Below are positions 2,794-48,408 of a DNA stretch of 48,408 nucleotides, piece by piece (position 1 is the stretch's first letter; each line of letters opens with the position of its first letter). Below the pieces are notes generated by a model. It saw only the letters and a list, made by a program, of their open reading frames with translations, was not told the origin of the DNA and did not search any database. A program made the translations under genes and the position numbers. Origin of the DNA: a virus (taxonomy: Duplodnaviria; Heunggongvirae; Uroviricota; Caudoviricetes); the IMG/VR virus record IMGVR_UViG_2740892271_000012, one strand, 5' to 3'.

Positions 2794-5386
2794 TTGCATA
2801 TTCCTTAGCCCAGCGGGGCAGTGATAACGTCTTAATAGCTGGCCATTCATCGGTATTGAGGCAGTCAGCCAGGGTTCGCAGATTGCGGTGATATTCCAGC
2901 TGACCTGCCAGTTTTGCTTCTTCGCCCATCATGAAAATTTCAACCGGATAACGTCCGCATTCAATAGTTGTGCTGGCAACCAGAAAAACGAAAGTTGGCT
3001 GCACTCCAAACTGTGCTTCATAACCGTCACTGTAGAATGCATCCTGAACGTGATAGCGGTAGTCGTAATAAGCGGTTTTGAATCGTTGAATATCCGCCGT
3101 AGTTTTCACGTCCATGATCCAGTGAAATTCAGGGATAATTTTGTCCGGACGGCACCGACACAAAATTGCTGTTTCAGGATCTTCCCAGTAAATTGATGAT
3201 TCAGCGTGTCCGGCGCTTTCAACAAGCCATTGCCCCAGCGGCAAAGCCATAACGCTCTGATACATGAGTTCAATTTTCCGGCCTTCTTCGGCAGTGATAA
3301 CCGTTTTTCCTGTGCTTGCGCATTCCCTCAGAAACGCTTTCTCTTCTTCTTTTCCGGAGTTTGTCCGGCGGTTAAATTCAGGTGCTACGATAAAGCGGTT
3401 ACTGAATTCTTCCGGCTCAAGTACCCGGCAGTGGAAAGCGGTTCCTAAATCGAGCGTTTTTGTCTTTGTGGTGTCCACGGGGGCATTTTTACGCCACAAA
3501 TACAGTGCCGGAGTATCAGCAATGTCATCGAGCTGAGACTTACTGACACCGGGACCCGCGTGGTAATTCTCATTCGAAATTCCGTAATAAATACCTGGCT
3601 CTATGTCTTCTACGATTACGGGATCTGCGACTTCGCCAGTTTCATCACTGCAATCGCGATGCGGATCGCTGCCAGCATTCTCATTGTGCGGATGTTCAGC
3701 GCCTTCCATTTCCTCCGGATCATTTTCCTTAGCTTCAACCTGACTCTCTTCATCGAATGTTTCCTGGTATGTTGCGTCGCCCATCACCGCACCACAGTCA
3801 GGGCAGTTATCCCCGCCAGTCTGGCCGCAGGCATTGCAGGCTATTTCCGGTTCCTGTTGCACTACTGGCTCAGGTTGATTCATATCCGGGCTGGTTTTTT
3901 CCGTTTCTGGCTGGTTCTGGTACACACAATCGCGAGTCTGGATCCCCTTTACCCATTTCGGATCGTTCGGGTCGCTAATTCCGTCAACAAATTCACCACG
4001 TGATGCAGCAAGCAATTTATCGGCATCGACAGGATTTTTTGATGGAATGTTTTTCCGGGCTTCATGGAGTTCTGCCCGCAGTTCCTGATATTTCGCATCA
4101 ACAGAATTTACCTGTGACTGAGCATCCAGCGGCTGCGTGTCCTGATGATGTTCAGTTGCGTCCGGTTCCATTGTTTCAGCCTCTCCCTGTTCAACTGCCG
4201 TTGTTCCAGATGGTTGCGGTTTTTCTTCATCATCCTGTTTTCCTTCTTCTGTTACTCGCTGCGGCATCGGGGCAGAGGAGCGACCGCAGGCAATATCCAC
4301 GATTTCCGGATCAGGGTTGGCATGATCGGTTTCAGTCAGTACTTTGTTCAGATATTCAGTGACGTGCGCGGGGATGACCTCGATCCCAATTGGTGCTTCT
4401 TTTACGGACGCAACCACGATGGCGCGGGAATAATCCAGCCCGCCAGGCATGGTGATGAATTTGTCGCGGAAAACAGAAAAGGGCGGTTTATTTTCAGCGA
4501 TAATTTCCTCAATGCGTTTAGCGTGTGCCGGATGAAGGTTATAGATGTCCAGATCCATTGAACGGGCCAGTACGCCAGTGGCTACGTCCCGCGCCAGTGA
4601 CGTCAGATCGTGTACGAAACCTTCGCCGCGATCGGTGAGGTTTCCGCCGCCAGCATTAGCACCGGAAGCCGTGCGAGTGATGTGTGAAACACGATTACCC
4701 TTCATCCACTCTTTTGTCAGCAGTCCTCGATCGGTGTAGTCAGCGTTCAGGTATGCTTCGAAAAAAGCAGTTATCAGTCCCAGGTTTGAATTACCAGGAT
4801 TAGGGAAAACTTTGTCAGTGTCACGAACCAGTTTGTGGAGTTCGCGAATTTCCAGCGGGTCGAGCAGGCTGGTTTTGTGGGAAACAGCCAGGGCAGTAAC
4901 AGCCGGTAGTTCTTCAGCCCGAGCAATGTGTAATGCCTGGAGTCCGTCGCGTGAAACGTGCGTTACCGGTTTTTCGCTGCCGTGTTGAGCAAGCCAACGA
5001 ATGGGCAGTTCCTGGCCAGAAATTGGGAGTAGCATATTCTCCTCAATCTCAGGCATGTCTTCGCCGTTGACGTTGGTATTGCCTTGATAGTGAGCGTTGT
5101 CTGGTGCTGCTCCCGGTTTTAGTTCCCATGTCATGGAGTCTTTGCTGAGTTGATAGCGTTCACTCCAGGTAAAATCGATCTCACCTTCAGCGGGCAGGTC
5201 ATTAACGACAGGAAAATTCGTGGCAACAGCTTTAAAATAGCTGCTCAGTTTTTTACCTGACTTAACGATCAGGTAGTCCAGAGTGGCACAGGTCGATTCA
5301 AAATCGTTGCTTGCCCACAGGACGACGTCAGGTTCACCGGATGATTTTTTCGCTTTCCGTAACAGGAAGAGTGGTTTTGTGCTCAT
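2786..5386 (-). CDS. recE: RecE exonuclease VIII (5'-3' dsDNA exonuclease)
   Basis: ORF track 866 aa, [30 protein letters not shown]...; full length, translationally coupled to recT. Confidence 0.9.
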
Positions 5387-5487
5387 TGTTTTTTAACCTC
5401 AACTCAGATTAAAATTCGTTTTGTTCAGTGAATGATCTTGCCGGATACACACTGTTCATAGCCTGCGCCATACGCAGGCTATTTCTT

Positions 5488-5763
5488 TCAGATTTCACCT
5501 TTTAATTTCATTGCAATTAGAGTTGCCAGAAATTCGGCTTTTTTTTCTGCGGGCAGATTCTTTCCGATATGCACCAGGCACATTTTTTTGACACCTTCAT
5601 CAAGTGTTTTTACGTTGCCTGATGGACCATCGATATCAACCACAGTGAATGGGGTTTCTTTATTTTCTGTTTTAATTACGTAGCCAATGCGCTTTCCTTC
5701 CAGATTCACCTCGTGAACAATGTCATCGGTAGTTACAACAGTGGCTTCATAATTGGTAATCAT
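5488..5763 (-). CDS. racC: RacC-like small protein
   Basis: ORF 5488-5811; ATG at 5763 with AAGGAG upstream gives MITNYEATVVTTDDIVHEV... Confidence 0.7.
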   Translation of the reverse strand: MITNYEATVVTTDDIVHEVNLEGKRIGYVIKTENKETPFTVVDIDGPSGNVKTLDEGVKKMCLVHIGKNLPAEKKAEFLATLIAMKLKGEI

Positions 5764-7159: not shown

Positions 7160-7311
7160 CTTACTGTGTGCTTCTCCAACCATCGGCGCGCACCAGTTTC
7201 GGTTTTAAATGTTTTGCTTTTGGTATACGTCATGGCAGTGAACGTTCCATCCTGGTTGGGGAACACGCCGCACACCAGGGATTCGTTGTTGCCGAGGTCG
7301 ATTTTTTGCAT
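7156..7311 (-). CDS. ydaF: YdaF-like small protein (51 aa)
   Basis: Hand translation: MQKIDLGNNESLVCGVFPNQDGTFTAMTYTKSKTFKTETGARRWLEKHTVS; convergent with sieB. Confidence 0.55.
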   Translation of the reverse strand: MQKIDLGNNESLVCGVFPNQDGTFTAMTYTKSKTFKTETGARRWLEKHTVS

Positions 7312-7321
7312 TTTGCGAATC

Positions 7322-7456
7322 TCACATCTTGTTGCTGTGTATAGCGACTTCTGCCTGCCAGAGATCCCAGTCGTTGCTGCGTAAAGCCTGCACAGCCTGG
7401 TTGTAAGTGATACCGCAACAATCCATCAAATACTGAACTACTTCGTAATGCACCAT
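7322..7456 (-). CDS. ydaG: YdaG-like small protein (44 aa)
   Basis: ORF 7322-7504; internal ATG at 7456 gives MVHYEVVQYLMDCCGITYNQAVQALRSNDWDLWQAEVAIHSNKM. Confidence 0.55.
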   Translation of the reverse strand: MVHYEVVQYLMDCCGITYNQAVQALRSNDWDLWQAEVAIHSNKM

Positions 7457-7624
7457 CTTATCTCTCCCCTTAACGCCGGGTGGCGGAACTGAAACCTGCT
7501 GCACTGCAAAATCTGAACCCTGCCGTCATGTTCATACGCCTCGGGCTGGCTACTTAACCCCTGACCACTGCCTGGTAACTCGAAGTATTGCCCTGCGTTC
7601 TGTGGGGCGGGGTGGGTTGGTAGG

Positions 7625-7672
7625 TATATAATGTACTTTGTGTTCATTGATGTAAAGTACTATAAGTACATT
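7625..7672. promoter_or_regulatory. Putative leftward early promoter/operator region with ATGTACT/AAGTACT/AAGTACA repeats
   Basis: Seen in sequence: atgtact 7631-7637, aagtact 7655-7661, aagtaca 7664-7670, next to a TATATAAT stretch; lies between the repressor gene and the leftward operon. Confidence 0.3.
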
Positions 7673-7746
7673 TTGTGTGTAAAAAAATGAGATGGGATAA
7701 AGTGAAGCACAAACCCGGAGGGGGACGCTACCGGATTTATGCTGGT

Positions 7747-8166
7747 TTAAGAGGCTTTTTGTTTTTTCTTTCGTGCTAGCTCTTCGTAAATTGCATTGTA
7801 CTTCTGTTTTTTCTCCTCAAGAGTTTTTAAAAGTTCATCTGTCTCACTGTCAGGGAGCTCGTCCAGAAGGTCAATGATGATTTTTTGTCTTGGATTTAAC
7901 TCCTGATAGAAACGTACCTGTCCACTTTCTTCTGTATCCTCTCCCAAAAGATAGGTTGGTGTTGTTCCAATGAGTGTTGCTAATTCCCTTAATTTCTCTC
8001 GGCGAGGAATTGTTTCGCCATTAAACCATTTGCTAACCGCTTTTGGTGTTAATTTCATTCGACGGGCAATTTCTGCCTGCCTTCCATGTTGTTCATAACC
8101 AGCGTTTTCACAGGCTAGCGCAAGCCTACTGGCGAACTCTTTACGCGCTTTATCTTCATGAACCAT
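7747..8166 (-). CDS. racR: Prophage repressor (cI-like HTH XRE-family, no S24 peptidase domain; RacR-like)
   Basis: ORF 7747-8184 (GTG); ATG at 8166 gives MVHEDKARKEFASRLALACENAGYEQHGRQAEIARRMKLTPKAVSKWFNGE..., a classic HTH; acidic coiled C-terminus. Confidence 0.7.
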   Translation of the reverse strand: MVHEDKARKEFASRLALACENAGYEQHGRQAEIARRMKLTPKAVSKWFNGETIPRREKLRELATLIGTTPTYLLGEDTEESGQVRFYQELNPRQKIIIDLLDELPDSETDELLKTLEEKKQKYNAIYEELARKKKQKAS

Positions 8167-8245
8167 AAGTTCAATGATATTCACTCTTGAATGTACTGTC
8201 AGTTCTGTTATAGCATGTACTCAAAGTTCACATTGTGAGGGTGAT
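8167..8245. promoter_or_regulatory. Divergent promoter/operator region between repressor and cro-like gene
   Basis: Two direct ATGTACT copies (8191-8197 and 8215-8221) in the 79-bp gap between divergent racR and ydaS starts; same heptamer as at 7631. Confidence 0.35.
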
Positions 8246-8500
8246 ATGAACCAGAAAACACTTGAAGATGTAATCAAAACTGTTCGCGTTTCTGTTGTGG
8301 CCGACGTTTGTGGTGTCAGCCAAAGAGCAATCTACAAATGGATGGATAACGGAAAATTGCCTCGCACAGAATATACCGGCGAAACAAATTACGCTGAAAA
8401 AATCGCTCATGCATCAAACGGATTATTTTCTGCTGATGTAATTTTAACTATTGGCAGAAATAAAACTACTACGAAAAAGCTGATGGGAGTTGATTCATGA
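8246..8500 (+). CDS. ydaS: Cro-like small DNA-binding protein (YdaS-like)
   Basis: ORF 8174-8500; ATG at 8246 gives MNQKTLEDVIKTVRVSVVADVCGVSQRAIYKWMDNGKLP (HTH); divergent from repressor. Confidence 0.7.
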   Translation: MNQKTLEDVIKTVRVSVVADVCGVSQRAIYKWMDNGKLPRTEYTGETNYAEKIAHASNGLFSADVILTIGRNKTTTKKLMGVDS

Positions 8501-8931: not shown

Positions 8932-9789
8932 ATGCTGTTTGTGCTTATTCTAAGCCACCGGGCAGCATCATACGGGGCAATTATGGCCGCATTACCATAC
9001 ATGCAACTGTACATAGCTGATTACCTGGCTGACACCATGCATTTGTCAGCAGAGGAGCATGGTGCGTATTTGTTGCTGATGTTCAATTACTGGCAAACAG
9101 GAAAGCCAATACCTAAAAACAGGCTGGCAAAAATTGCCCGTCTGACTAACGAGCGATGGGCTGATGTTGAACCATCCTTGCAGGAGTTTTTTTGCGATAA
9201 CGGCGAGGAATGGGTGCATCTTCGGATTGAGGAAGATCTGGCATCAGTCAGGGAAAAATTAACCAAAAAATCAGCCGCAGGAAAAGCATCTGTTCAGGCC
9301 AGAAGAAGCAGAAAGGAAGCAGATGTTCAAACAAAACAAGAGAGAAATTTAACAGGTGTTCAAACAGATGTTGAAGTGGTGTTTGAACATGATGTCAACA
9401 CAAAGGCAACTAATAAAGATACAGATAAAGATCTAAAAACAGATCCCCCCCTAAATCCCCCCCGGGGGAATCGAGGTGTCAAAAAGTTTGACCCTCTGGA
9501 TATTGCTTTGCCGAACTGGATTTCTGTCTCGCTTTGGCGTGAGTGGGTTGAATTTCGCCAGGCATTGCGAAAACCGATTCGAACGGAGCAGGGCGCTAAC
9601 GGGGCGATACGGGAGCTGGAAAAATTCCGCCAGCAGGGTTTTTCACCTGAGCAGGTGATTCGACACAGCATCGCCAATGAATACCAGGGCTTGTTCGCGC
9701 CGAAAGGTGTTCGACCTGAGACGTTACTCCGACAGGTTAACACCGTCTCGTTACCGGATAGTGCGATCCCGCCAGGCTTCAGGGGGTAA
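8932..9789 (+). CDS. ydaU: Replication initiation protein (YdaU-like, lambda O-position)
   Basis: ORF track 285 aa; sits before the DnaC-like loader gene; contains an internal iteron-like cluster in an interdomain linker. Confidence 0.7.
   Translation: MLFVLILSHRAASYGAIMAALPYMQLYIADYLADTMHLSAEEHGAYLLLMFNYWQTGKPIPKNRLAKIARLTNERWADVEPSLQEFFCDNGEEWVHLRIEEDLASVREKLTKKSAAGKASVQARRSRKEADVQTKQERNLTGVQTDVEVVFEHDVNTKATNKDTDKDLKTDPPLNPPRGNRGVKKFDPLDIALPNWISVSLWREWVEFRQALRKPIRTEQGANGAIRELEKFRQQGFSPEQVIRHSIANEYQGLFAPKGVRPETLLRQVNTVSLPDSAIPPGFRG
9321..9390. repeat. Iteron-like cluster: three copies of TGTTCAAACA (two direct, one inverted) followed by an A-rich stretch; candidate phage replication origin
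   Basis: Seen in sequence: tgttcaaaca at 9324-9333 and 9357-9366, reverse complement tgtttgaaca at 9380-9389, then aataaagatacagataaagatctaaaaac. Confidence 0.35.
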
Positions 9790-9795
9790 CTGACC

Positions 9796-10542
9796 ATGAA
9801 AAATATTGCGACAGGCGACGTTCTTGAACGTATCCGCAGACTGGCCCCGTCACATGTAACCGCGCCATTCAAGACGGTAGCGGAGTGGCGCGAGTGGCAA
9901 CTTTCCGAAGGCCAGAAACGTTGTGAGGAGATCAACCGTCAGAATCGTCAGTTGCGGGTGGAAAAAATTCTGAATCGCTCTGGCATCCAGCCATTGCACC
10001 GCAAATGCTCGTTTTCGAATTACCAGGTGCAGAACGAAGCGCAGCGATACGCGTTGAGTCAGGCGAAATCCATCGCTGATGAACTGATGACCGGGTGTAC
10101 AAATTTTGCGTTCAGCGGAAAACCTGGTACCGGGAAGAACCACTTAGCGGCAGCTATCGGGAATCGCCTGCTGAAAGACGGTCAGACAGTGATTGTGGTT
10201 ACCGTGGCTGATGTTATGAGTGCCCTGCACGCCAGCTATGACGATGGGCAGTCAGGCGAAAAATTTTTGCGGGAACTATGCGAAGTGGATCTGCTGGTTC
10301 TTGATGAAATTGGCATTCAGCGCGAGACGAAAAACGAGCAGGTGGTGCTGCACCAGATTGTTGATCGCCGGACAGCGTCGATGCGCAGCGTGGGGATGCT
10401 GACAAACCTGAACTATGAGGCCATGAAAACATTGCTCGGCGAGCGGATTATGGATCGCATGACCATGAACGGCGGGCGATGGGTGAATTTTAACTGGGAG
10501 AGCTGGCGTCCGAATGTCGTCCAGCCAGGAATTGAGAAGTAA
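9796..10542 (+). CDS. ydaV: DnaC-like helicase loader / IstB-like AAA+ ATPase (lambda P-position)
   Basis: ORF track 248 aa with Walker A GKPGTGKN and Walker B LLVLDEIG. Confidence 0.85.
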
Positions 10543-10564
10543 TTTTTACCGGGAGGAAATTTTT

Positions 10565-11326
10565 ATGGAGACTGTTTTTGACGCACTGAAAGCAATGGGA
10601 AAAGCCACATCCATAGAACTTGCTGCGCGACTTGATATCAGTCGTGAAGAAGTGCTGAACGAACTATGGGAACTGAAAAAAGCTGGTTTCGTTGATAAAA
10701 GCGCGTACACCTGGCGTGTGGCTGATAACAACGTTCAGCAGGAACAGCCAATGCAGGCAGAACTGCCGGAAGAAACCACCACGGCAACTGTAGTGAAAAT
10801 CTCAGAGTGCGATTTAACCGCGACGATTGAACAACGCGGACCACAAACGGCGGATGAACTGGCTACGCTGTTCGGTACAACATCCCGCAAAGTTGCTTCA
10901 ACGCTGGCAATGGCAATCAGCAAAGGACGCCTGATTCGCGTAAACCAGAACAGTAAATTTCGTTACTGCATGCCGGGCGATAATTTACCAGCAGAGCCGA
11001 AAGCTGCATCGGTAGCGGAAACTGATGGTAAAGCCTTTCCTCAGCCAGCCGGTGTTGCGTTACCAGTACAGGAAGCGGCAACACAGGAAGATATTAAAAC
11101 AGAAACTGTGGCGGACATTGTGCAGTCGCTGCCATCGTTTACTGAAACGCAAGCGGATGACCTAGTTTTACCATCGCTGCATATGGCAAACCGCGAACTG
11201 CGTCGGGCGAAAAATCATGTCCAGAAGTGGGAGCGAGTCTGCGCCGCGCTGCGGGAGCTGAACAAGCACCGGGATATTGTCCGACAGATTGTCGATTCCT
11301 CCAGTCGTATTGTGTCGGAAAAGTGA
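10565..11326 (+). CDS. Hypothetical protein (YdaW-like)
   Basis: ORF 10514-11326; ATG at 10565 gives [31 protein letters not shown] (winged-helix-like N-terminus). Confidence 0.5.
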
Positions 11327-11341
11327 TTGCCGGAGGCGCTT

Positions 11342-11758
11342 ATGGCAAAAGTTTTTACACAGGAAGAGCGTGAAAAAATTAAGGAGCAGGTTGTTGAGTT
11401 GGTACGCCAGAGTGGGCGCGAGACGTTAAGGCAACTGGAGGCCAAGACAGGTGCGACAAGATATCTGATGAGCATTCTTGCCAGAGAGTTGGTTGCCAGT
11501 GGCGATGTATACAACTCTGGCTATGGGTTATTCCCGTCTGAACAGGCTCGTAAGGATTGGAAAAACGCCCGCAAAAAACTATCCAGGGCAAAGGTGAAAA
11601 AAACGGTTGTGGTTGATCCTGACCTTATCTGGTCATTACCAGACGGAGAAATACGCCGCTATGACAGGCGTCAGAACATAATCTGTCGCGAGTGCCGGAA
11701 GAGTGAAGTTATGAAACGTGTACTGGCATTTTATCAAGGAAATCTTCGGTATTTATAG
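11342..11758 (+). CDS. Hypothetical protein
   Basis: ORF 11327-11758, probable start MAKVFTQEEREKIKEQ at 11342; basic C-terminus. Confidence 0.45.
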   Translation: MAKVFTQEEREKIKEQVVELVRQSGRETLRQLEAKTGATRYLMSILARELVASGDVYNSGYGLFPSEQARKDWKNARKKLSRAKVKKTVVVDPDLIWSLPDGEIRRYDRRQNIICRECRKSEVMKRVLAFYQGNLRYL

Positions 11759-11896
11759 ACGTTACTAGATCAAAGAGCATTAGTTCATATGTAAATTGAC
11801 ATTTTTCTGGCACAGGGGAGAGCTAGCGTGGTTGTCCGCTTTGTGCCAATAGCGGACATTGCTGGCTCATGGTATGTTAGTTTAAGGAGGCAGGTT

Positions 11897-12919
11897 ATGC
11901 CCTGTATTTCGCTGTGGTATAATAGTTGCGCAATTGATACAAGGGAGCGTTACATCGTGAAAATTGTTTTCGAGGTTAATGGAAAGAAAGTTCCACTAAA
12001 ATCTTTAAAATACATAAGCAAAAAAGATCAACTCGAAGTAATGAAAAACTGGTTCTTTGAAAACTTTGAAGATCCGGCAAATGCTTGTCCGTATGAAAGT
12101 AGAGAAGGTGGCTATGCTTACATATATGGCGGGCCGTATGATGCGAGCGAAGAACTACAATCCATCTTCGGTCAATATGTTAAATCTGAGTATATTGAGG
12201 AATTAGTAGATGAATTACAAACACAATGTTTTGACTGGTCTGGAAACTCAAATAATATAGATGATTGGTACGATGATGATATCTACGACGCTGTAACGTC
12301 TTCCGGTAATCCGTATTTAAAATTCATTGATAATATCGATAAAATAAAAAAACTTGCAAAAGATAAAACTGAACAACAGCAAAAAAACCACTTGCTTAGT
12401 TTGCTCTACACGAATGTTATTACAGCTTTGGAAACGCTTTATGTTGAGCTATTCATTAATTCTATAGAGAAAGATGATGTCTACATAGCCAATTGTATAG
12501 AAAAAGGTAAGACTGAATTTAAAGTAAGCAAAGATATTGCTGCGTTGCCTTTCAAGGGTGAACCCATCGAGAAAATTAGGGGAGAGCTAATCAGGTCAAT
12601 CAAGGAACACTTGATCAGTGCAAGCTGGCATAGCACTAAAAAGGTAATCGACCGCTATGAAGCTACATTCGATATAAAAGTACAAAAAGACTGTCCGATA
12701 GAAGCTATTGAATTGGCAACCCTCAATCGAAATCACTTAGTGCATCGTGGTGGAAAGGATAAAGAAGGGAACCTCGTAGTGATTACAGACCAGGATCTTG
12801 AAACGCTGATTGAAAATGCATCGAACCTGGCAATTATGCTCTACAACAGTTTAAATGTAGCAACGAATAAAACCACCATTTTGCAACCAGATGACAAACC
12901 GTTCATTCATGAATTTTAA
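11897..12919 (+). CDS. Cargo protein A: uncharacterised protein with a C-terminal RNHLVH (Rx4H, HEPN-type) motif; candidate RNase-like effector
   Basis: ORF 11828-12919; strong SD AAGGAGG 6 nt before ATG at 11897 (alternative GTG at 11957 after AAGGGAG and a TGgTATAAT element); motif LNRNHLVHRGG encoded at 12722-12754; AT-rich codon usage by eye. Confidence 0.55.
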   Translation: MPCISLWYNSCAIDTRERYIVKIVFEVNGKKVPLKSLKYISKKDQLEVMKNWFFENFEDPANACPYESREGGYAYIYGGPYDASEELQSIFGQYVKSEYIEELVDELQTQCFDWSGNSNNIDDWYDDDIYDAVTSSGNPYLKFIDNIDKIKKLAKDKTEQQQKNHLLSLLYTNVITALETLYVELFINSIEKDDVYIANCIEKGKTEFKVSKDIAALPFKGEPIEKIRGELIRSIKEHLISASWHSTKKVIDRYEATFDIKVQKDCPIEAIELATLNRNHLVHRGGKDKEGNLVVITDQDLETLIENASNLAIMLYNSLNVATNKTTILQPDDKPFIHEF

Positions 12920-12934
12920 TAGCGCAGGTCATAC

Positions 12935-13936
12935 ATGGATATTCGCACACGAAAGACAAAATTTTTAGAGTCGTTAGATTCAACTGAAGTGATACGCAAA
13001 GCAGTAAGTCTCGCTATAGATTGCATTATTGATAATCATAATAGTAATGAAGATACCCCCTTAGTTATTACCAGCTATGATGATCTCTGTAGAATCCAGG
13101 TGCTAAATTATGTACAGGAGTTTTGCGAAGCTGCATTCCCTGATATGGATGAATATTACTTTAGTCCTAACATACTTCGCATCAACGGCAAGACTAGTGA
13201 AGAAGCTTGTATTAACTTAATTAAACTCTTAAGAAGTACAAAAGGCATGCTATTCTGGTCCGATGCCCCATCGTGGTTCGCTAGCCTCCCCGACGGATTA
13301 TTCCATGTTGTTAACATTGATCAAAAAATCGTTACTCGCGGCCTTAATAAGAAAAACTCTAAGCCGACAATAATCAATAAAGATTACAGTGTAGATACAC
13401 TACTATCAGAGCTATTTTTGAATGGCGCACACATGGAGCAACCCAACGTACACAACGTTTCTGAGGGAAACATGAAGTTCTATGATGAATGCCATGCTGG
13501 ATTAATCAGACCAATACCCGCTCCAATAGGCGCGTCATACGATGAAGAGATCACAATTAATTCTCCAGATTGGCAAAAGCTCGCGTGTGTAGCTTTACGC
13601 CGCTATCAGTCGAAGGAATGTCATGACGGAATGCAATGGGATACAACCGATCATGGTTGGACTGATGTAATCGCGTATCCATTCGTCGAAGAAATACAAT
13701 CAATGGATAATAGTGGTTATCGACAATGTTTAGTTGGGCTGGTCACAATAAACAATTCAAATGCAAATTCTCCGTACCTATCTACCGTTTGGATACATCC
13801 ATTTTATCGCAGGAGAGGGTTATTAAGTAAGTTATGGCCAAAATTACAAGAGTTATATGGAAGTAACTTCGAAATTGAGCGACCTAATGAAAATATGAAA
13901 GCATTTCTGAAAAGTGCGAAACACGCAGATTACTAA
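12935..13936 (+). CDS. Cargo protein B: two-domain protein with a C-terminal GNAT-like acetyltransferase fold
   Basis: ORF track 333 aa; 15 bp after gene A; C-terminal segment CLVGLVTI...VWIHPFYRRRGLLSKL resembles GNAT motif A (encoded around 13796-13825); N-terminal ~180 aa unrecognised. Confidence 0.6.
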   Translation: MDIRTRKTKFLESLDSTEVIRKAVSLAIDCIIDNHNSNEDTPLVITSYDDLCRIQVLNYVQEFCEAAFPDMDEYYFSPNILRINGKTSEEACINLIKLLRSTKGMLFWSDAPSWFASLPDGLFHVVNIDQKIVTRGLNKKNSKPTIINKDYSVDTLLSELFLNGAHMEQPNVHNVSEGNMKFYDECHAGLIRPIPAPIGASYDEEITINSPDWQKLACVALRRYQSKECHDGMQWDTTDHGWTDVIAYPFVEEIQSMDNSGYRQCLVGLVTINNSNANSPYLSTVWIHPFYRRRGLLSKLWPKLQELYGSNFEIERPNENMKAFLKSAKHADY

Positions 13937-14496
13937 TTTATGAATCAGTCTGTGGAGTTAGGGTTGGTGTGAACAAGTAGGGTAAGAGCCTCAACGTGAT
14001 GCTATGCCGACCTGCTCCCTGAGAATTCACACAGAAGGCTGCTAGCAATGTCTGCAGATCGCTCAAAGCGGACTAAAATGTTGGCTTGTTTCTGACTTAG
14101 AGCATTTAAGGAAGTGCTGGTGGTGACTGGTTGTTGTGTTCCATTTCTACAGAATAAAATCACAGAAACTATACCCAATAGTTGTATTGAATCACTGACG
14201 AGACAGCCTCATATTTATCAGGACTGGTGTGCGTCTAATACAGGGGGTTGTCGTGCTGGTTCTCAAATGTGCGCTGGCTATTGCGGCTGTAATGGCAATT
14301 TATTGTCTTGCTGTTGTTCTTATGGAGCGGCTTTCTGATTGATTACATACTGGCTAGAAAAAAGGTGTTACCTTGGTTTATCTTTGTCCGGCAAGGTGCG
14401 CTCATTAATCTTAAGTAAATTTATTGCTCAAGTATTCAGATTACTTCTTATGGTTGAAGTCTCCTGTCAATGTAGAACCAATATATTTACAAAAAT

Positions 14497-14527
14497 GAGA
14501 CCCGTCGGGGATAGCCCTGCCGGGTCT
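14497..14527 (-). terminator. Hairpin followed by T-run on the minus strand, downstream of the YeaR-like gene
   Basis: Seen in sequence: gagacccg...cgggtct inverted repeat 14497-14527; minus strand continues cattttt. Confidence 0.4.
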
Positions 14528-14556
14528 GACTGTTAAAGCATTTTTAATATGATCAT

Positions 14557-14895
14557 CTATTTTTTGGTGCTATAGACTTTTTCGCCCGAAAAGTCTGGAG
14601 CGACCCAAAAGTTAATATTAAACTGAGCATCATCGCTTAGTTCAACACGGTGCCAGTATTGTGGTGGGCTTGTTGCAAAAGCGCCAGCATTAATGACTAC
14701 TTTTATCTCCGGTTCAGTAGCATTCTCATCAGTAAAACCATAATATGTTACAGTGCCTTCCATTACGCACAACTGCCCAAAAACACCTGCTGCTGTATTA
14801 TGATGTGTTAATAACGCTGAAGGTACGTTCTCTTTTGTGAAGAACGGAGTTGAGCGTTTGATTACCCAATCTTTAGGAATTCTCTTGTGTGTCAT
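14557..14895 (-). CDS. YeaR-like DUF1971 protein
   Basis: ORF 14557-14919; ATG at 14895 after GGAGG; recalled alignment to E. coli YeaR (RSTPFW, VMHGAVKYLGY, FAVFPPEKWH, FNIDFFVAPE blocks conserved). Confidence 0.7.
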   Translation of the reverse strand: MTHKRIPKDWVIKRSTPFFTKENVPSALLTHHNTAAGVFGQLCVMEGTVTYYGFTDENATEPEIKVVINAGAFATSPPQYWHRVELSDDAQFNINFWVAPDFSGEKVYSTKK

Positions 14896-15708
14896 AACCA
14901 CCTCCTCCAAAACATGCATTAAAAATGCATCTTTTGGAGGGTTATGTCAAGCTGTTATGAAACACATAATTGATATGTTGATTAGAGGAGAAGATAGAAT
15001 AAATATGGTTGTTTTTCGTATAACTATTTGTTTTACTTTTAGTTTATGCATTCTGTGTGTTAGGAATAAGTTATTAAAGTTTAATCAAAAAATCTCGATG
15101 TAGTCCACATAGATTACTGTTACTGAACCTTATTGTGTGTATTAGTTGTGTTCTGAAATTTCAGCTTAATTATTTATGATGTATTTTTTAACGATAAATA
15201 TTTTCCCAGGATACCTTTACTGTGTATATAAATAAATTATATACGCATAAATAATGTAAAGGCGTCCTTTTAGATATATCTTATCAAATGTTAATGACTT
15301 GAGTGGGAAATATGATTCCAGCAACTTATCATGTGGCTACTTTATAAAAATAATGCCCATATAAAACAACAAGCGAAAAGGATTACGGATAAAAAAGGAG
15401 CGAGATGTGCGAACTTGTTATTTTCCATGTTTAACCACCTTAAATAATTGATGATGACGGGATGATTGCATCTGTAATGCTTTTATTGAAATGTTATGAT
15501 AAAAAAGAACTTTTGCATAACATTAAAATGTAATTTATCTAATCGTTTTTAATAATAAGTGTCGTATTTCTATCCTTGTACCAGCTATTTGATATGTAGT
15601 GTTTGTTCATGCTATGTGGGGCTTTACACCATAGCCAGTTTATTTATACTTTATTCGTCAGCCTGAACAACTGGCATCTGCTGCGCTGCGCCATCGAGAG
15701 ATTGAGAA

Positions 15709-16308
15709 ATGGCGCATATACAACTGGTCAAACAAACCTCTTCTGGTTTACTTCTCCCGGCGACGCCGGAGAGTTGCGATTTTCTGCATCAAATCAAAAT
15801 AGGTGAGTGGATACACGCAGACTTTAAGCGTGTGCGTAACTACGCATTCCACAAGCGTTTTTTCAAACTCCTGCAACTGGGATTCGATTACTGGACTCCG
15901 GTCGGTGGGGCGATCACGCCTCGCGAACGAGAACTGCTGTCTGGTTTCGTTGATTACCTGTGCGAATCAGTTGGTCGGGAACACACGCCAGCCCTGAGTG
16001 ATGCCGCAGAGCAATACCTTAACACCGTTGCGACTCGTAGAACCCGGGATACGGCGTTGCTAAAGTCGTTTGAGGCTTTCCGCGAGTGGGTAACCATTCA
16101 GGCCGGATTTTACACCGAGCATATTTATCCGGACGGTAGCCGTGGGCGTCGGGCAAAATCCATCGCTTTTGCGAATATGGACGAAGTCGAGTTTCAGCAG
16201 GTTTATAAATCTGTACTGAATGTGCTGTGGAACTGGATTCTGTTCCGTAAATTCTCCTCTCAGGAGGAAGTTGAAAATGTGGCCGCACAACTACTGGAGT
16301 TTGCGTAA
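15709..16308 (+). CDS. DUF1367-family phage protein (YbcN-like, nin-region)
   Basis: ORF track 199 aa MAHIQLVKQTSSGLLLPATPESCDFLHQIKIGEWIH...; sits upstream of the YbcO-like and Q-like genes. Confidence 0.6.
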   Translation: MAHIQLVKQTSSGLLLPATPESCDFLHQIKIGEWIHADFKRVRNYAFHKRFFKLLQLGFDYWTPVGGAITPRERELLSGFVDYLCESVGREHTPALSDAAEQYLNTVATRRTRDTALLKSFEAFREWVTIQAGFYTEHIYPDGSRGRRAKSIAFANMDEVEFQQVYKSVLNVLWNWILFRKFSSQEEVENVAAQLLEFA

Positions 16309-16598
16309 TGGTGAATTTACGTAAAGCGGCTAAAGGCCAGATGTGCCAGATCAGAATCCCTGGCTACTGCAATCACAATCCCGAAACCTCTGTGCTGGCG
16401 CATTACAGGCTGGCGGGGACGTGCGGAACAGCGACAAAACCACATGATATGCAGGCGGCGATAGCCTGTAGCTCATGCCACGATCTAATCGACGGGCGGG
16501 TAAAAACCAGCGATTACACCAAAGAAGAATTGCGCCTGATGCATGCTGAAGGGGTTTTTCGCACACAAGAAATCTGGAGAAAGAAAGGTCATTTATGA
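16308..16598 (+). CDS. YbcO-like DUF1364 protein (Cys4 putative nuclease)
   Basis: ORF track 96 aa MVNLRKAAKGQMCQIRIPGYCNHNPETSVLAH...CSSCHDLID; recalled similarity to DLP12 YbcO. Confidence 0.65.
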   Translation: MVNLRKAAKGQMCQIRIPGYCNHNPETSVLAHYRLAGTCGTATKPHDMQAAIACSSCHDLIDGRVKTSDYTKEELRLMHAEGVFRTQEIWRKKGHL

Positions 16599-17137
16599 TT
16601 TACCCAACGAATACAGGAAAAAGCGGAGAACACCTTCGCCTCACCACGCTGGAAAGTGTCTGGATTCAGGGAAAACTACGTATGTGGGGGCGCTGGTCGT
16701 ATATTGGCGGTGGCAGGTCAGGGAATATGTTCAATCAGTTGTTGGCATCCAAAAAACTGACGAAAACAGCCATTAATGAAGCCCTGCGCAGAATGAAAAA
16801 AGCGGGAATAGAGAAAGCTGAGCTGGAAGCGTTTTTGCGAGAGATGATCAACGGCAAGCAAAAGAGCTGGCTGGCGCATTGTACTGATGCAGAGGCGTTA
16901 TGTATTGATCGAGTCATAAGTGAGGTGCTGGCAGAGCATCCAGGATTGATTTGCATTCTCCGGCAACGCTATGAAGGGCGGGGGATGACTAAGCGCAAAA
17001 TGGCTGAATTGCTAAATGATGCACACCCAGAGTGGTGTTTTAGCACATGCGAAAAACGGATTGCTAATTGGTTAGCTGTTGCTGAGTATGCCCTATATAT
17101 TCCCATGCGTGAATCATTTGCTGAGAAAATGGCTTGA
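16595..17137 (+). CDS. Putative late-gene antiterminator (Q-like)
   Basis: ORF track 180 aa; last gene before the lysis region, overlapping start with the previous gene; WxxGxW-type block (RMWGRWSY); assignment is largely positional. Confidence 0.55.
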   Translation: MIYPTNTGKSGEHLRLTTLESVWIQGKLRMWGRWSYIGGGRSGNMFNQLLASKKLTKTAINEALRRMKKAGIEKAELEAFLREMINGKQKSWLAHCTDAEALCIDRVISEVLAEHPGLICILRQRYEGRGMTKRKMAELLNDAHPEWCFSTCEKRIANWLAVAEYALYIPMRESFAEKMA

Positions 17138-17590: not shown

Positions 17591-18181
17591 GGGCTGGTTT
17601 ATTGTATGCCAAATGATTATTAAAAAGGTTGTGTTAATAACAAGATCCGAAATAATATGCCTGCATATTTTTATCTTGCTTATATTCTGCATATTGTGCA
17701 TAGCAGGCTCATCCCTGCAATCAAAACTGTATGATGAGTATTTTTTGTTTTCCTTTTTTCCAGTCATCTGATGATGACCTGCTTCTTTTTAATCCGGATC
17801 GACATCAGTTTTTTAAGATAATTCCTGCGAGTTATATGCATAAATGCCACAAACTCCGCATTTTATGTGGTTGGGAGTTGCCGGGCGCGCAGTGAGTTTG
17901 CTAAGAAAACTCCTGCATGGTGAATCCCCCTGTGCGGTGGGGTGATACCATTAACCTTTTCTGTCGCCGACAGGTATCACGAACATTTTGTTCACCGGGA
18001 GGCACCCGGCACCATGCACTTCAATAGATTCTCTCCACATTATGGATATTCTTTCAGAATATCCCACGCAGACTTTGTGTAAATGTTAACAAATGTGCGT
18101 TTTATTTGATCTGATTCGCTGTTTGAGCGTCCAAAACAACGGTATATATAATCCTTTACTATATGACATATGTGAGGAAAA

Positions 18182-47824: not shown

Positions 47825-48408
47825 TGGCATTCAGAATGAGTGAACAACCACGGACCATAAAAATTTATAATCTGCTGGCCGGAACTAATGAATTTATTGG
47901 TGAAGGTGATGCATATATTCCGCCTCATACAGGTCTGCCAGCAAACAGTACCGATATTGCACCGCCAGATATTCCGGCTGGCTTCGTGGCTGTTTTCAAC
48001 AGTGATGAGTCATCGTGGCATCTCGTTGAAGATCATCGGGGTAAAACGGTTTATGACGTGGCTTCCGGCGACGCGTTATTTATTTCTGAACTCGGTCCGT
48101 TACCGGAAAATGTTACCTGGTTATCGCCGGAAGGGGAGTTTCAGAAGTGGAACGGCACAGCCTGGGTGAAGGATACGGAAGCAGAAAAACTGTTCCGGAT
48201 CCGGGAGGCGGAAGAAACAAAAAACAACCTGATGCAGGTAGCCAGTGAGCATATTGCGCCGCTTCAGGATGCTGCAGATCTGGAAATTGCAACGGAGGAA
48301 GAAATCTCGTTGCTGGAAGCATGGAAAAAGTATCGGGTATTGCTGAACCGTGTTGATACGTCAACTGCACCTGATATTGAGTGGCCTACGAACCCTGTCA
48401 GGGAGTAA
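47824..48408 (+). CDS. tfaR: Tail fibre assembly protein (Tfa-like)
   Basis: ORF track 194 aa [45 protein letters not shown]...; start overlaps stf stop; stop codon at window end. Confidence 0.85.

Follow-up and report, generated by a model that had tools for sequence, protein, structure and literature searches.

A Two-Gene Cargo Cassette in a Rac-Like Escherichia coli Prophage Encoding a Candidate Abortive-Infection HEPN Protein and a Seemingly Separable GNAT-Fold Protein

The Two Genes and Their Location

The virus record IMGVR_UViG_2740892271_000012 of IMG/VR, a stretch of 48,408 nucleotides referred to below as the window, is a Rac-like lambdoid prophage of Escherichia coli in which two co-oriented open reading frames (ORFs) on the plus strand fill the interval from 11,897 to 13,936. 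The first, gene A, encodes a HEPN protein, and the second, gene B, a protein with a GNAT fold. In the ORF listing they occupy positions 11828-12919 (with an ATG at 11897 inside) and 12935-13936, with a gap of 15 nt between the stop codon of A and the ATG of B. Our modest preference goes to viewing the pair as a promoter-bearing cargo cassette, with A acting as a self-contained abortive-infection RNase and B being a separable GNAT-fold protein, a reading that rests on gene structure, folds, motif conservation, distribution, linkage pattern and natural knock-outs. The genes are the following:

11957 to 12919, plus strand: gene A, 320 aa (WP_014639476, PHROG 17908), from the ORF, RefSeq, homologues and an AlphaFold2 model
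12935 to 13936, plus strand: gene B, 333 aa (WP_000354966, PHROG 16994), from the ORF, homologues and an AlphaFold2 model

Neither protein receives a functional name from NCBIfam, PADLOC or PHROGs; both PHROGs are families of unknown function and RefSeq labels both products as hypothetical. A preliminary description of the window had recognised no named system in the pair, which is borne out, and had pictured two tightly linked genes in an AT-rich tract at a cargo site between the replication genes and the nin/Q region. The linkage and the site agree with the present data, while the tract proved wider than stated. The GC content is 0.34-0.43 over 11800-14000, as against 0.50-0.55 over the replication genes at 9400-11600 and 0.49-0.53 over 15600-16600, and the AT-rich tract continues beyond the two genes to about 15600, taking in a DUF1971 gene and two non-coding stretches.

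An identical stretch is found in strain FORC_081, flanked on one side by recE, racC, kilR, sieB, ydaT, ydaU and a DUF977 gene, and on the other by DUF1971, DUF1367, DUF1364 and DUF1133 genes and the lysis genes. The DUF977 gene is present in prophages of 3900 of 5426 E. coli genomes, and what follows it in other lambdoid prophages of the species varies: QueH, a DUF5677 protein, an alpha/beta hydrolase, IS30 with small genes and, in another prophage, an AbiH abortive-infection gene, with hokD adjoining the slot in related prophages. This variable content, which includes a known Abi gene, supports the interpretation of the position as a cargo site, and A and B would thus form a two-gene cargo ("moron") cassette in the variable slot after DUF977. 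The cassette is carried by 209 of the 5426 complete E. coli genomes (about 4%), including the type strain ATCC 11775 and extraintestinal pathogenic isolates, and both genes are under purifying selection, the ratio of nonsynonymous to synonymous substitution rates (dN/dS) being 0.12-0.18 for A and 0.2-0.4 for B.

Cassette Ends, Start Codon and Putative Promoter

Three segments delimit the cassette:

11832 to 11896, plus strand: upstream leader block, common to enterobacterial copies only
11897 to 11956, plus strand: left cassette end with a promoter-like element, conserved in the upstream alignment of 11 loci
13937 to 14010, plus strand: right cassette end, placed where similarity to cassette copies from other backbones stops (14006-14010)

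The 230 nt upstream of A were aligned from 11 loci carrying both genes (E. coli, Serratia, Aeromonas and metagenomes). The flanks of these loci are unrelated up to about 60 nt before the GTG at 11957 and conserved from there on. The conserved block holds an extended -10 sequence, TGGTATAAT at 11915-11923 in the window and TGnTAYAAT in most other paired loci, followed by a Shine-Dalgarno sequence (AAGGGAG, 11941-11947) ahead of the GTG, the last two being conserved in all paired loci. Because the -10 sequence, the Shine-Dalgarno sequence and the GTG are common to copies with unrelated flanks, the cassette most likely carries its own promoter, as judged from sequence conservation. A generic sigma-70 scan missed this element on account of its poor -35, and it was the comparative alignment that revealed it.

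The preliminary description had placed the start of A at ATG 11897. That codon is not conserved and lies inside the promoter-like element, and GTG 11957 is most likely the true start, since the starts of the homologues align there, RefSeq WP_014639476 begins there, and the GTG and its Shine-Dalgarno sequence are conserved. In the AlphaFold2 model of a longer, 340-aa version of A, whose residue numbering is used throughout, the additional N-terminal residues (about 15-20) have a predicted local distance difference test (pLDDT) score below 50. Further upstream, the leader block contains a hairpin-like GTCCGC...GCGGAC and a second extended -10-like sequence, TGGTATGTT. It is conserved in the window and in loci L003, L096, L100, L107 and L120, is not conserved in the Aeromonas loci, and is retained in three variants (L104, L153 and L154) from which A has been deleted.

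On the right side, the prophage backbone resumes at 14011, from where the sequence is found in 1758 E. coli genomes. The left conservation edge and the right homology edge at 14006-14010 together define a mobile unit of about 2.1 kb (approximately 11897-14010). A generic site scan found no promoter- or terminator-like site between A and B, and no convincing intrinsic terminator follows B, the fold of 13930-14030 being ordinary (z -1.3); the terminator-like sites closest to the right end lie at 14277-14331. Atypical GC content, a variable slot and a conserved extended -10 sequence of promoter-like character are features expected of a moron or cargo cassette of lambdoid prophages, and the unit appears to combine all three. 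The same cassette was met, at 100% identity, on a 3.3-kb contig labelled as a Collinsella sp. metagenome-assembled genome (L002, JAIHTM010000277.1), and its filing under an actinobacterial genome is most likely due to a binning contaminant.

Gene A Encodes a HEPN Protein with a Probable HEPN/RES NTD1 Domain

A is a HEPN protein, probably of the RiboL-PSP type, that most likely carries, in addition, a HEPN/RES-NTD1 domain. Its features are:

12032 to 12232, plus strand: HEPN/RES NTD1 core (residues 46-112; Pfam PF18870)
12374 to 12886, plus strand: all-helical HEPN domain (residues about 160-330)
12728 to 12748, plus strand: RNHLVHR, the HEPN Rx4H motif (R278, H283 and R284), from the translation

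The search for relatives returned 121 homologues, those of Enterobacterales and Aeromonas sharing 56-88% identity with A and those of Acidobacteriota, Chloroflexota, cyanobacteria and others 25-39%. The AlphaFold2 model of A (pLDDT 87.7) matches the HepS structure 9oik and presents the all-alpha helical bundle of the HEPN fold together with a conserved Rx4-6H motif. An Rx4H string alone is common by chance. In 60 aligned homologues, however, R278, H283 and R284, which lie in the stretch that the preliminary description had read as a HEPN motif, are invariant down to 25% identity, as are W244, H245 and E179, and 29 of the 60 match PF18735 (HEPN_RiboL-PSP; best E 7.1e-11). The invariant residues and the family-level Pfam matches go far beyond what the motif alone could provide and establish the HEPN assignment as correct.

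At the family level, the N-terminal half corresponds to a described Pfam domain that the preliminary description had overlooked. PF18870 (HEPN_RES_NTD1) matches 55 of the 60 homologues at E<=0.01, many of which carry a precomputed assignment, and P65, G78, G79, P80, F91 and W114 of this region are invariant throughout the 60 sequences. The domain is found fused also to a PIN nuclease (P0116) and, in alphaproteobacteria, to unassigned C-terminal domains. From its sequence associations, NTD1 appears to be modular, pairing with various toxic effectors, namely RES in the defence protein aRES, HEPN in A and PIN elsewhere. In Bradyrhizobium canariense (L063, 6025-8106), the longest ORF (693 aa) has HEPN/RES NTD1 together with S1 and RNase E/G domains, a combination that may reflect a genuine fusion or may simply arise from the choice of the longest ORF. 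Profile searches of the A and B families against all PDB sequences gave chance-level matches only.

The genomic surroundings of A were surveyed in a scan of one genome per species, which yielded 80 loci, or 81 with the E. coli reference locus (L001). In 78 of the 81, including enterobacterial copies at 62-76% identity, A occurs without B, which is present only in the reference locus, in the identical contig filed under Collinsella and in Serratia grimesii. Clustering of the neighbouring ORFs revealed no conserved neighbour of A, no gene being found in more than 3 of the 81 loci, and the gene that follows A homologues is often on the opposite strand or far off. Several of the neighbours that can be named are of a defence or mobile kind, among them a PD-T7-5-like gene (L012), a type III restriction-like gene (L025) and an integrase (L007). 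A P2-like prophage of Yersinia alsatica (L005) carries a stand-alone A homologue of about 75% identity (4392-5753, minus strand) in the interval that separates replication gene A from the portal/terminase genes. The homologue adjoins a 453-aa protein with an ApeA_NTD1 domain; this P2 cargo spot thereby holds two HEPN-type candidates.

Gene B Encodes a GNAT-Fold Protein with a Family-Specific N-Terminal Domain

B is composed of two parts:

12935 to 13459, plus strand: N-terminal alpha/beta domain (residues about 1-175), family-specific
13487 to 13933, plus strand: GNAT-fold module (residues about 185-333)
13778 to 13837, plus strand: LSTVWIHPFYRRRGLLSKLW, the beta4-alpha3 motif A region of the GNAT fold in a degenerate form, from the translation and Pfam

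The family comprises 66 homologues in Enterobacterales, Aeromonas, Shewanella, Marinomonas, Idiomarina and marine metagenomes, and is strongly conserved over its whole length. The AlphaFold2 model (pLDDT 90.6) has the GNAT fold. In a Foldseek search of the PDB its nearest folds were protein-lysine acetyltransferases (alpha-TAT, ESCO1, HAT1 and MYST), with HAT1, ESCO1 and the MYST enzymes on top at E of about 1e-4; the same search gave no assignment for the N-terminal domain.

The GNAT-like segment singled out by the preliminary description, LSTVWIHPFYRRRGLLSKLW, lies within residues 264-311, which align to positions 42-91 of PF00583 (Acetyltransf_1). The B of the window scores 19.9 bits on this model against a cut-off of 20.7, and 17 of 45 B homologues match it, the best at E 6e-6. 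The claim of a motif A stands as regards the beta4-alpha3 region and has to be amended as regards its form, which is degenerate, with glycines that are not invariant: the motif reads R292-R-R-G295-L-L against the consensus Q/R-x-x-G-x-G/A, so that its last position is neither G nor A in the window's protein. Across the family R292 is invariant and W286, H288 and P289 are conserved, while G295 falls below 90%.

In a profile search covering 1.84 billion representative proteins, the full two-domain protein was restricted to about 11 clusters and the N-terminal 175 or so residues had no relatives outside the B family. The C-terminal module (residues about 185-333) also occurs as stand-alone proteins of 150-180 aa (E 1e-37 to 1e-20), small versions of which were found in prophage cargo regions and some in defence-like neighbourhoods, next to AAA_13, Abi_2, a giant NPHP3_N-like protein or a PLD nuclease. 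A pattern back-translated from CWIHPFxR, used to look for the stand-alone module in viral contigs, gave chance matches only.

Homologues of B at 70% identity or less always occur without A. Such lone copies are found in an integrative and conjugative element, beside a ddrB-ParB gene on an unclassified contig, after a Toprim-D5 primase gene of satellite or phage type, next to AAA_13 or Abi_2 genes and, in marine bacteria, next to polA. Among 16 lone-B loci no conserved neighbour emerged, the downstream ORFs of 267-279 aa falling into three unrelated groups. A different effector upstream of lone B was also considered and discarded, the candidate ORFs of 1197, 1005 and 780 aa being a primase and unassigned proteins. 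Two distant lone copies (51-56% identity), one in Marinomonas (L088) and one in a metagenome (L163), lie directly downstream of polA, in one case beside an Abi_2-like gene, which suggests that this site is a variable island in marine gammaproteobacterial contigs.

These contexts bear on a decidedly unlikely alternative, in which B would be a counter-defence or host-modifying acetyltransferase of mobile elements, merely packaged beside the defence gene A; the anti-CRISPR acetyltransferase AcrVA5 offers a comparison. The occurrence of lone B on conjugative or mobilisable elements, by ddrB-ParB, after the Toprim-D5 primase and on plasmids would suit such a function, as would the presence of the GNAT module as small proteins in prophage cargo and the existence of deletion variants that keep B and the promoter. 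However, no similarity to a known anti-defence protein was found, a protein-level search of 50,697 GenBank phage records returned no B, and the defence-like neighbourhoods of some stand-alone relatives fit a defence role equally well.

Linkage and Separability of A and B

Besides the distribution of the two families, natural knock-outs bear on the relation between A and B. In three loci in which B has 86% identity (L104, L153 and L154), A is internally deleted, and what is left is the leader, the final 40-65 nt of A and a B that is intact; an alternative effector had been sought in these loci before they proved to be deletions of A. The junctions are 11933->12856 in L104 and L153 and 11890->12878 in L154, and as they differ, A must have been lost at least twice independently while B and the upstream signals were kept. 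Conversely, in E. coli SF-173 (NZ_CP012631, L169) an IS1A insertion splits B at about codon 187, cutting off its GNAT half, and A is identical and intact. In MB56 (NZ_CP073936, L171), ISSen4 sits both ahead of A and at B's 5' end. Such loss of either gene is what two separable genes would be expected to show, and a toxin with its antidote would not. Taken with the distribution, this sequence evidence suggests that A and B, although they move as a pair, are not dependent on one another, so that, of the earlier proposal of an RNase effector with an acetyltransferase partner, the HEPN and GNAT folds are upheld and the partnership is not.

Two side observations concern the same loci. The cassette of SF-173 sits in a different lambdoid backbone and is followed by hokD, DUF968 and RusA, and E. 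coli O78 strain 3 (NZ_CP084096, L170) has an IS2 between DUF977 and A.

Several observations weigh against the preferred reading of a self-contained A and a separable B. When upstream sequence is available, copies of B with at least 73% identity almost always have A directly upstream at a spacing of 16-19 nt, and this arrangement is kept from 100% identity down to 78% for A and 74% for B, in a lambdoid prophage, an Aeromonas mobilisable element, plasmids and metagenomic contigs. The synonymous divergence (dS) of A is similar to that of B in most comparisons, and in E. coli each gene is present in the same number of genomes (209/5426). Such stability of the pair could reflect functional coupling rather than mere adjacency. 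What remains of B in SF-173 includes its N-terminal 187 aa, and these could suffice to neutralise A; the natural knock-outs are known here from genome sequence. As for the identity of A, the window's own protein has no match to PF18735 at E<=0.01 and scores 21.8 bits (E 2.5e-4) on PF18870, under the cut-off of 27.4. PADLOC-DB 2.0 gave no real match, the best for A (E 0.01) falling on unrelated short stretches and B having none. Finally, promoter activity, RNase activity, phage sensing, a defence phenotype and any activity of B are things that we infer.

The tight linkage keeps alive an unlikely rival, according to which A and B would form one two-component system, B being an enzymatic regulator or antitoxin that acetylates A, its trigger or its target, and phage infection relieving or redirecting this control. 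A precedent of a kind exists in the type VII pairs, where MNT nucleotidyltransferases AMPylate HEPN toxins. The 15-nt gap devoid of promoter or terminator, the spacing fixed across about 25% protein divergence and different mobile elements, the similar dS and the shared 209 E. coli genomes all agree with it, as does the resemblance of B to protein-lysine acetyltransferases, and an orphan B left after deletion of A is the decay path expected for an antitoxin. What speaks against this rival is that 78 of 81 species-level loci hold A without B, that A has no alternative conserved partner, that all B homologues of 70% identity or less lack A, that A stays intact in SF-173 with the GNAT half of B removed, and that aRES, which has the same N-terminal domain, works alone.

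The loss of either gene while the other is kept also argues against a very improbable possibility, that of a plain addiction (post-segregational killing) module stabilising the prophage with no anti-phage role. HEPN proteins are common as toxins of toxin-antitoxin pairs, as seen in the list of fold matches of A, and the backbone has other toxin-antitoxin elements, the RalA small RNA in the window and hokD by the slot in related prophages. On the other hand, there is no small labile antitoxin gene, members of the A family are mostly solitary genes, and the closest characterised relatives of the A architecture are defence proteins.

One further observation on the paired loci is that in Aeromonas caviae (L082-L085, locus coordinates 7212-8293) the A-B cassette is part of a relaxase-bearing mobilisable element, about 1.2 kb from a convergent pair of SIR2 and cREC_REC genes that looks like another defence module.

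Proposed Mode of Action and Significance

If the reading of A as a self-contained abortive-infection RNase and of B as a separable protein is right, the cassette can be pictured as working in the following manner, by analogy with aRES and HepS as far as A is concerned. A would be made constitutively in the lysogen and held inactive until a cue from an infecting phage switched it on. Active A would then cut cellular RNA, either tRNA or mRNA, stopping both the growth of the cell and the superinfecting phage. B, presumably co-transcribed from the promoter of A, would be a GNAT-fold acyltransferase with a family-specific N-terminal domain, separable from A, which would need it neither as an antidote nor as a partner.

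Pfam already lists the architecture of A, and a defence role has been demonstrated for the relative in which RES takes the place of HEPN; in the literature no report was found testing the HEPN version of the NTD1 architecture or B. Should A protect against phages, HEPN/RES-NTD1 would stand out as a portable module driving different killing domains (RES, HEPN and PIN), and the question would arise of what this module senses. We regard as doubtful the bolder proposition that the cassette is a new kind of immune module joining the action of an acetyltransferase to that of a HEPN nuclease, in which B either acetylates A, the phage trigger or the target and so gates the RNase, or is itself a new acetyltransferase effector with an infection-sensing, family-specific N-terminal domain. 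In the former case it would represent an acetylation-based counterpart of the AMPylation found in HEPN-MNT pairs, and in the latter, two layered defences under one promoter.

The interest of the cassette lies also in its being common in E. coli with products still labelled hypothetical, and in B combining a domain that has no detectable relatives with a divergent GNAT core. The substrate of B could uncover a novel role for acetylation where phages, mobile elements and hosts are in conflict, and the natural variants lacking A or B make the genetics easy to test.

Other Features of the Window

To the right of the mobile unit, the backbone holds an unannotated element of about 300 nt (14055-14357), which is about 90% conserved in many of the 1758 E. 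coli genomes matching 14011-14556 and which other prophages carry immediately before hokD. The window's copy includes a 74-aa Cys-rich ORF (14114-14338) along with two terminator-like hairpins (14277-14331). The ORF was dropped as a gene candidate, given this backbone setting ahead of hokD and the lack of any annotation, and the element probably represents either what is left of a hok locus or a regulatory RNA, and not a gene. Beyond it come the DUF1971 (TehB-like) gene at 14557-14919, on the minus strand and thus opposite to the cassette, about 790 nt of very AT-rich non-coding DNA (14920-15708; GC 0.27-0.31) and the DUF1367 gene. The DUF1971 gene and the non-coding stretch belong to the low-GC tract of the cassette and lie outside the mobile unit.

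Rfam matches above the gathering score in the window are RalA (1557-1735), which is the antitoxin small RNA of the RalR/RalA pair of Rac, STnc100 (17885-18071) and IS009 (48167-48365); tRNA genes were not found in the window.

Comparison with Known Systems

B resembles the type II GNAT toxins TacT, AtaT and KacT in having a GNAT fold and occurring on mobile elements. Those toxins are proteins of about 170 aa that acetylate aminoacyl-tRNA and are encoded next to a small RHH/DUF1778 antitoxin (PMC9177977). B, in contrast, has an additional N-terminal domain of 175 aa and a degenerate motif A, and no RHH/DUF1778 antitoxin, either as an ORF or as an annotation, adjoins it, which sets it apart from the GNAT-RHH pairs.

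The type VII HEPN-MNT pairs (e.g., SO_3166/SO_3165) are defined by an adjacent MNT gene in obligatory pairing. Their partner is an obligatory nucleotidyltransferase, whereas the neighbour of A is a GNAT-fold protein that, judging by the absence of the pairing in 78 of 81 loci, is dispensable. Furthermore, A is over twice as long as the HEPN-MNT toxins and has an extra domain.

The RiboL-PSP-HEPN family, whose model 29 of the 60 aligned A homologues match, has a catalytically active Rx4-6H site and is distantly related to AbiD/AbiF (Anantharaman et al. 2013, PMC3710099). The members that gave it its name carry a fused endoRNase L-PSP domain or are encoded in ParB operons, whereas A has NTD1 instead, and the window's A is too diverged to match the PF18735 model of the family.

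HepS, from the Salmonella prophage Gifsy-1, is a solo HEPN abortive-infection protein with an Rx4H site and no partner gene, made constitutively and kept inactive until it meets a phage tail-tip protein, whereupon it acts as a tRNA anticodon nuclease (PMC13043305). A falls outside the HepS type when this is taken as a single-HEPN-domain, partner-free protein on a prophage; yet the two genes lie in an equivalent lambdoid accessory slot, between the replication genes and the late-regulation region (PMC13043305).

A further parallel is found in aRES, which by definition combines a RES domain with PF18870 (Osterman et al., bioRxiv 10.64898/2026.01.28.702374). The aRES genes stand alone in defence islands and defend E. 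coli against a range of phages, a protection accompanied by growth arrest and NAD+ depletion (bioRxiv 10.64898/2026.01.28.702374), so that their role is shown by experiment where that of A is predicted by analogy. A differs from aRES in having a HEPN domain instead of the RES NAD+ phosphorylase, no RES match being found in A, and the window's A differs further in having B 15 nt downstream. The A family at large has in common with aRES the PF18870 N-terminal domain, matched by 55 of the 60 homologues, the two-domain layout and the stand-alone gene.

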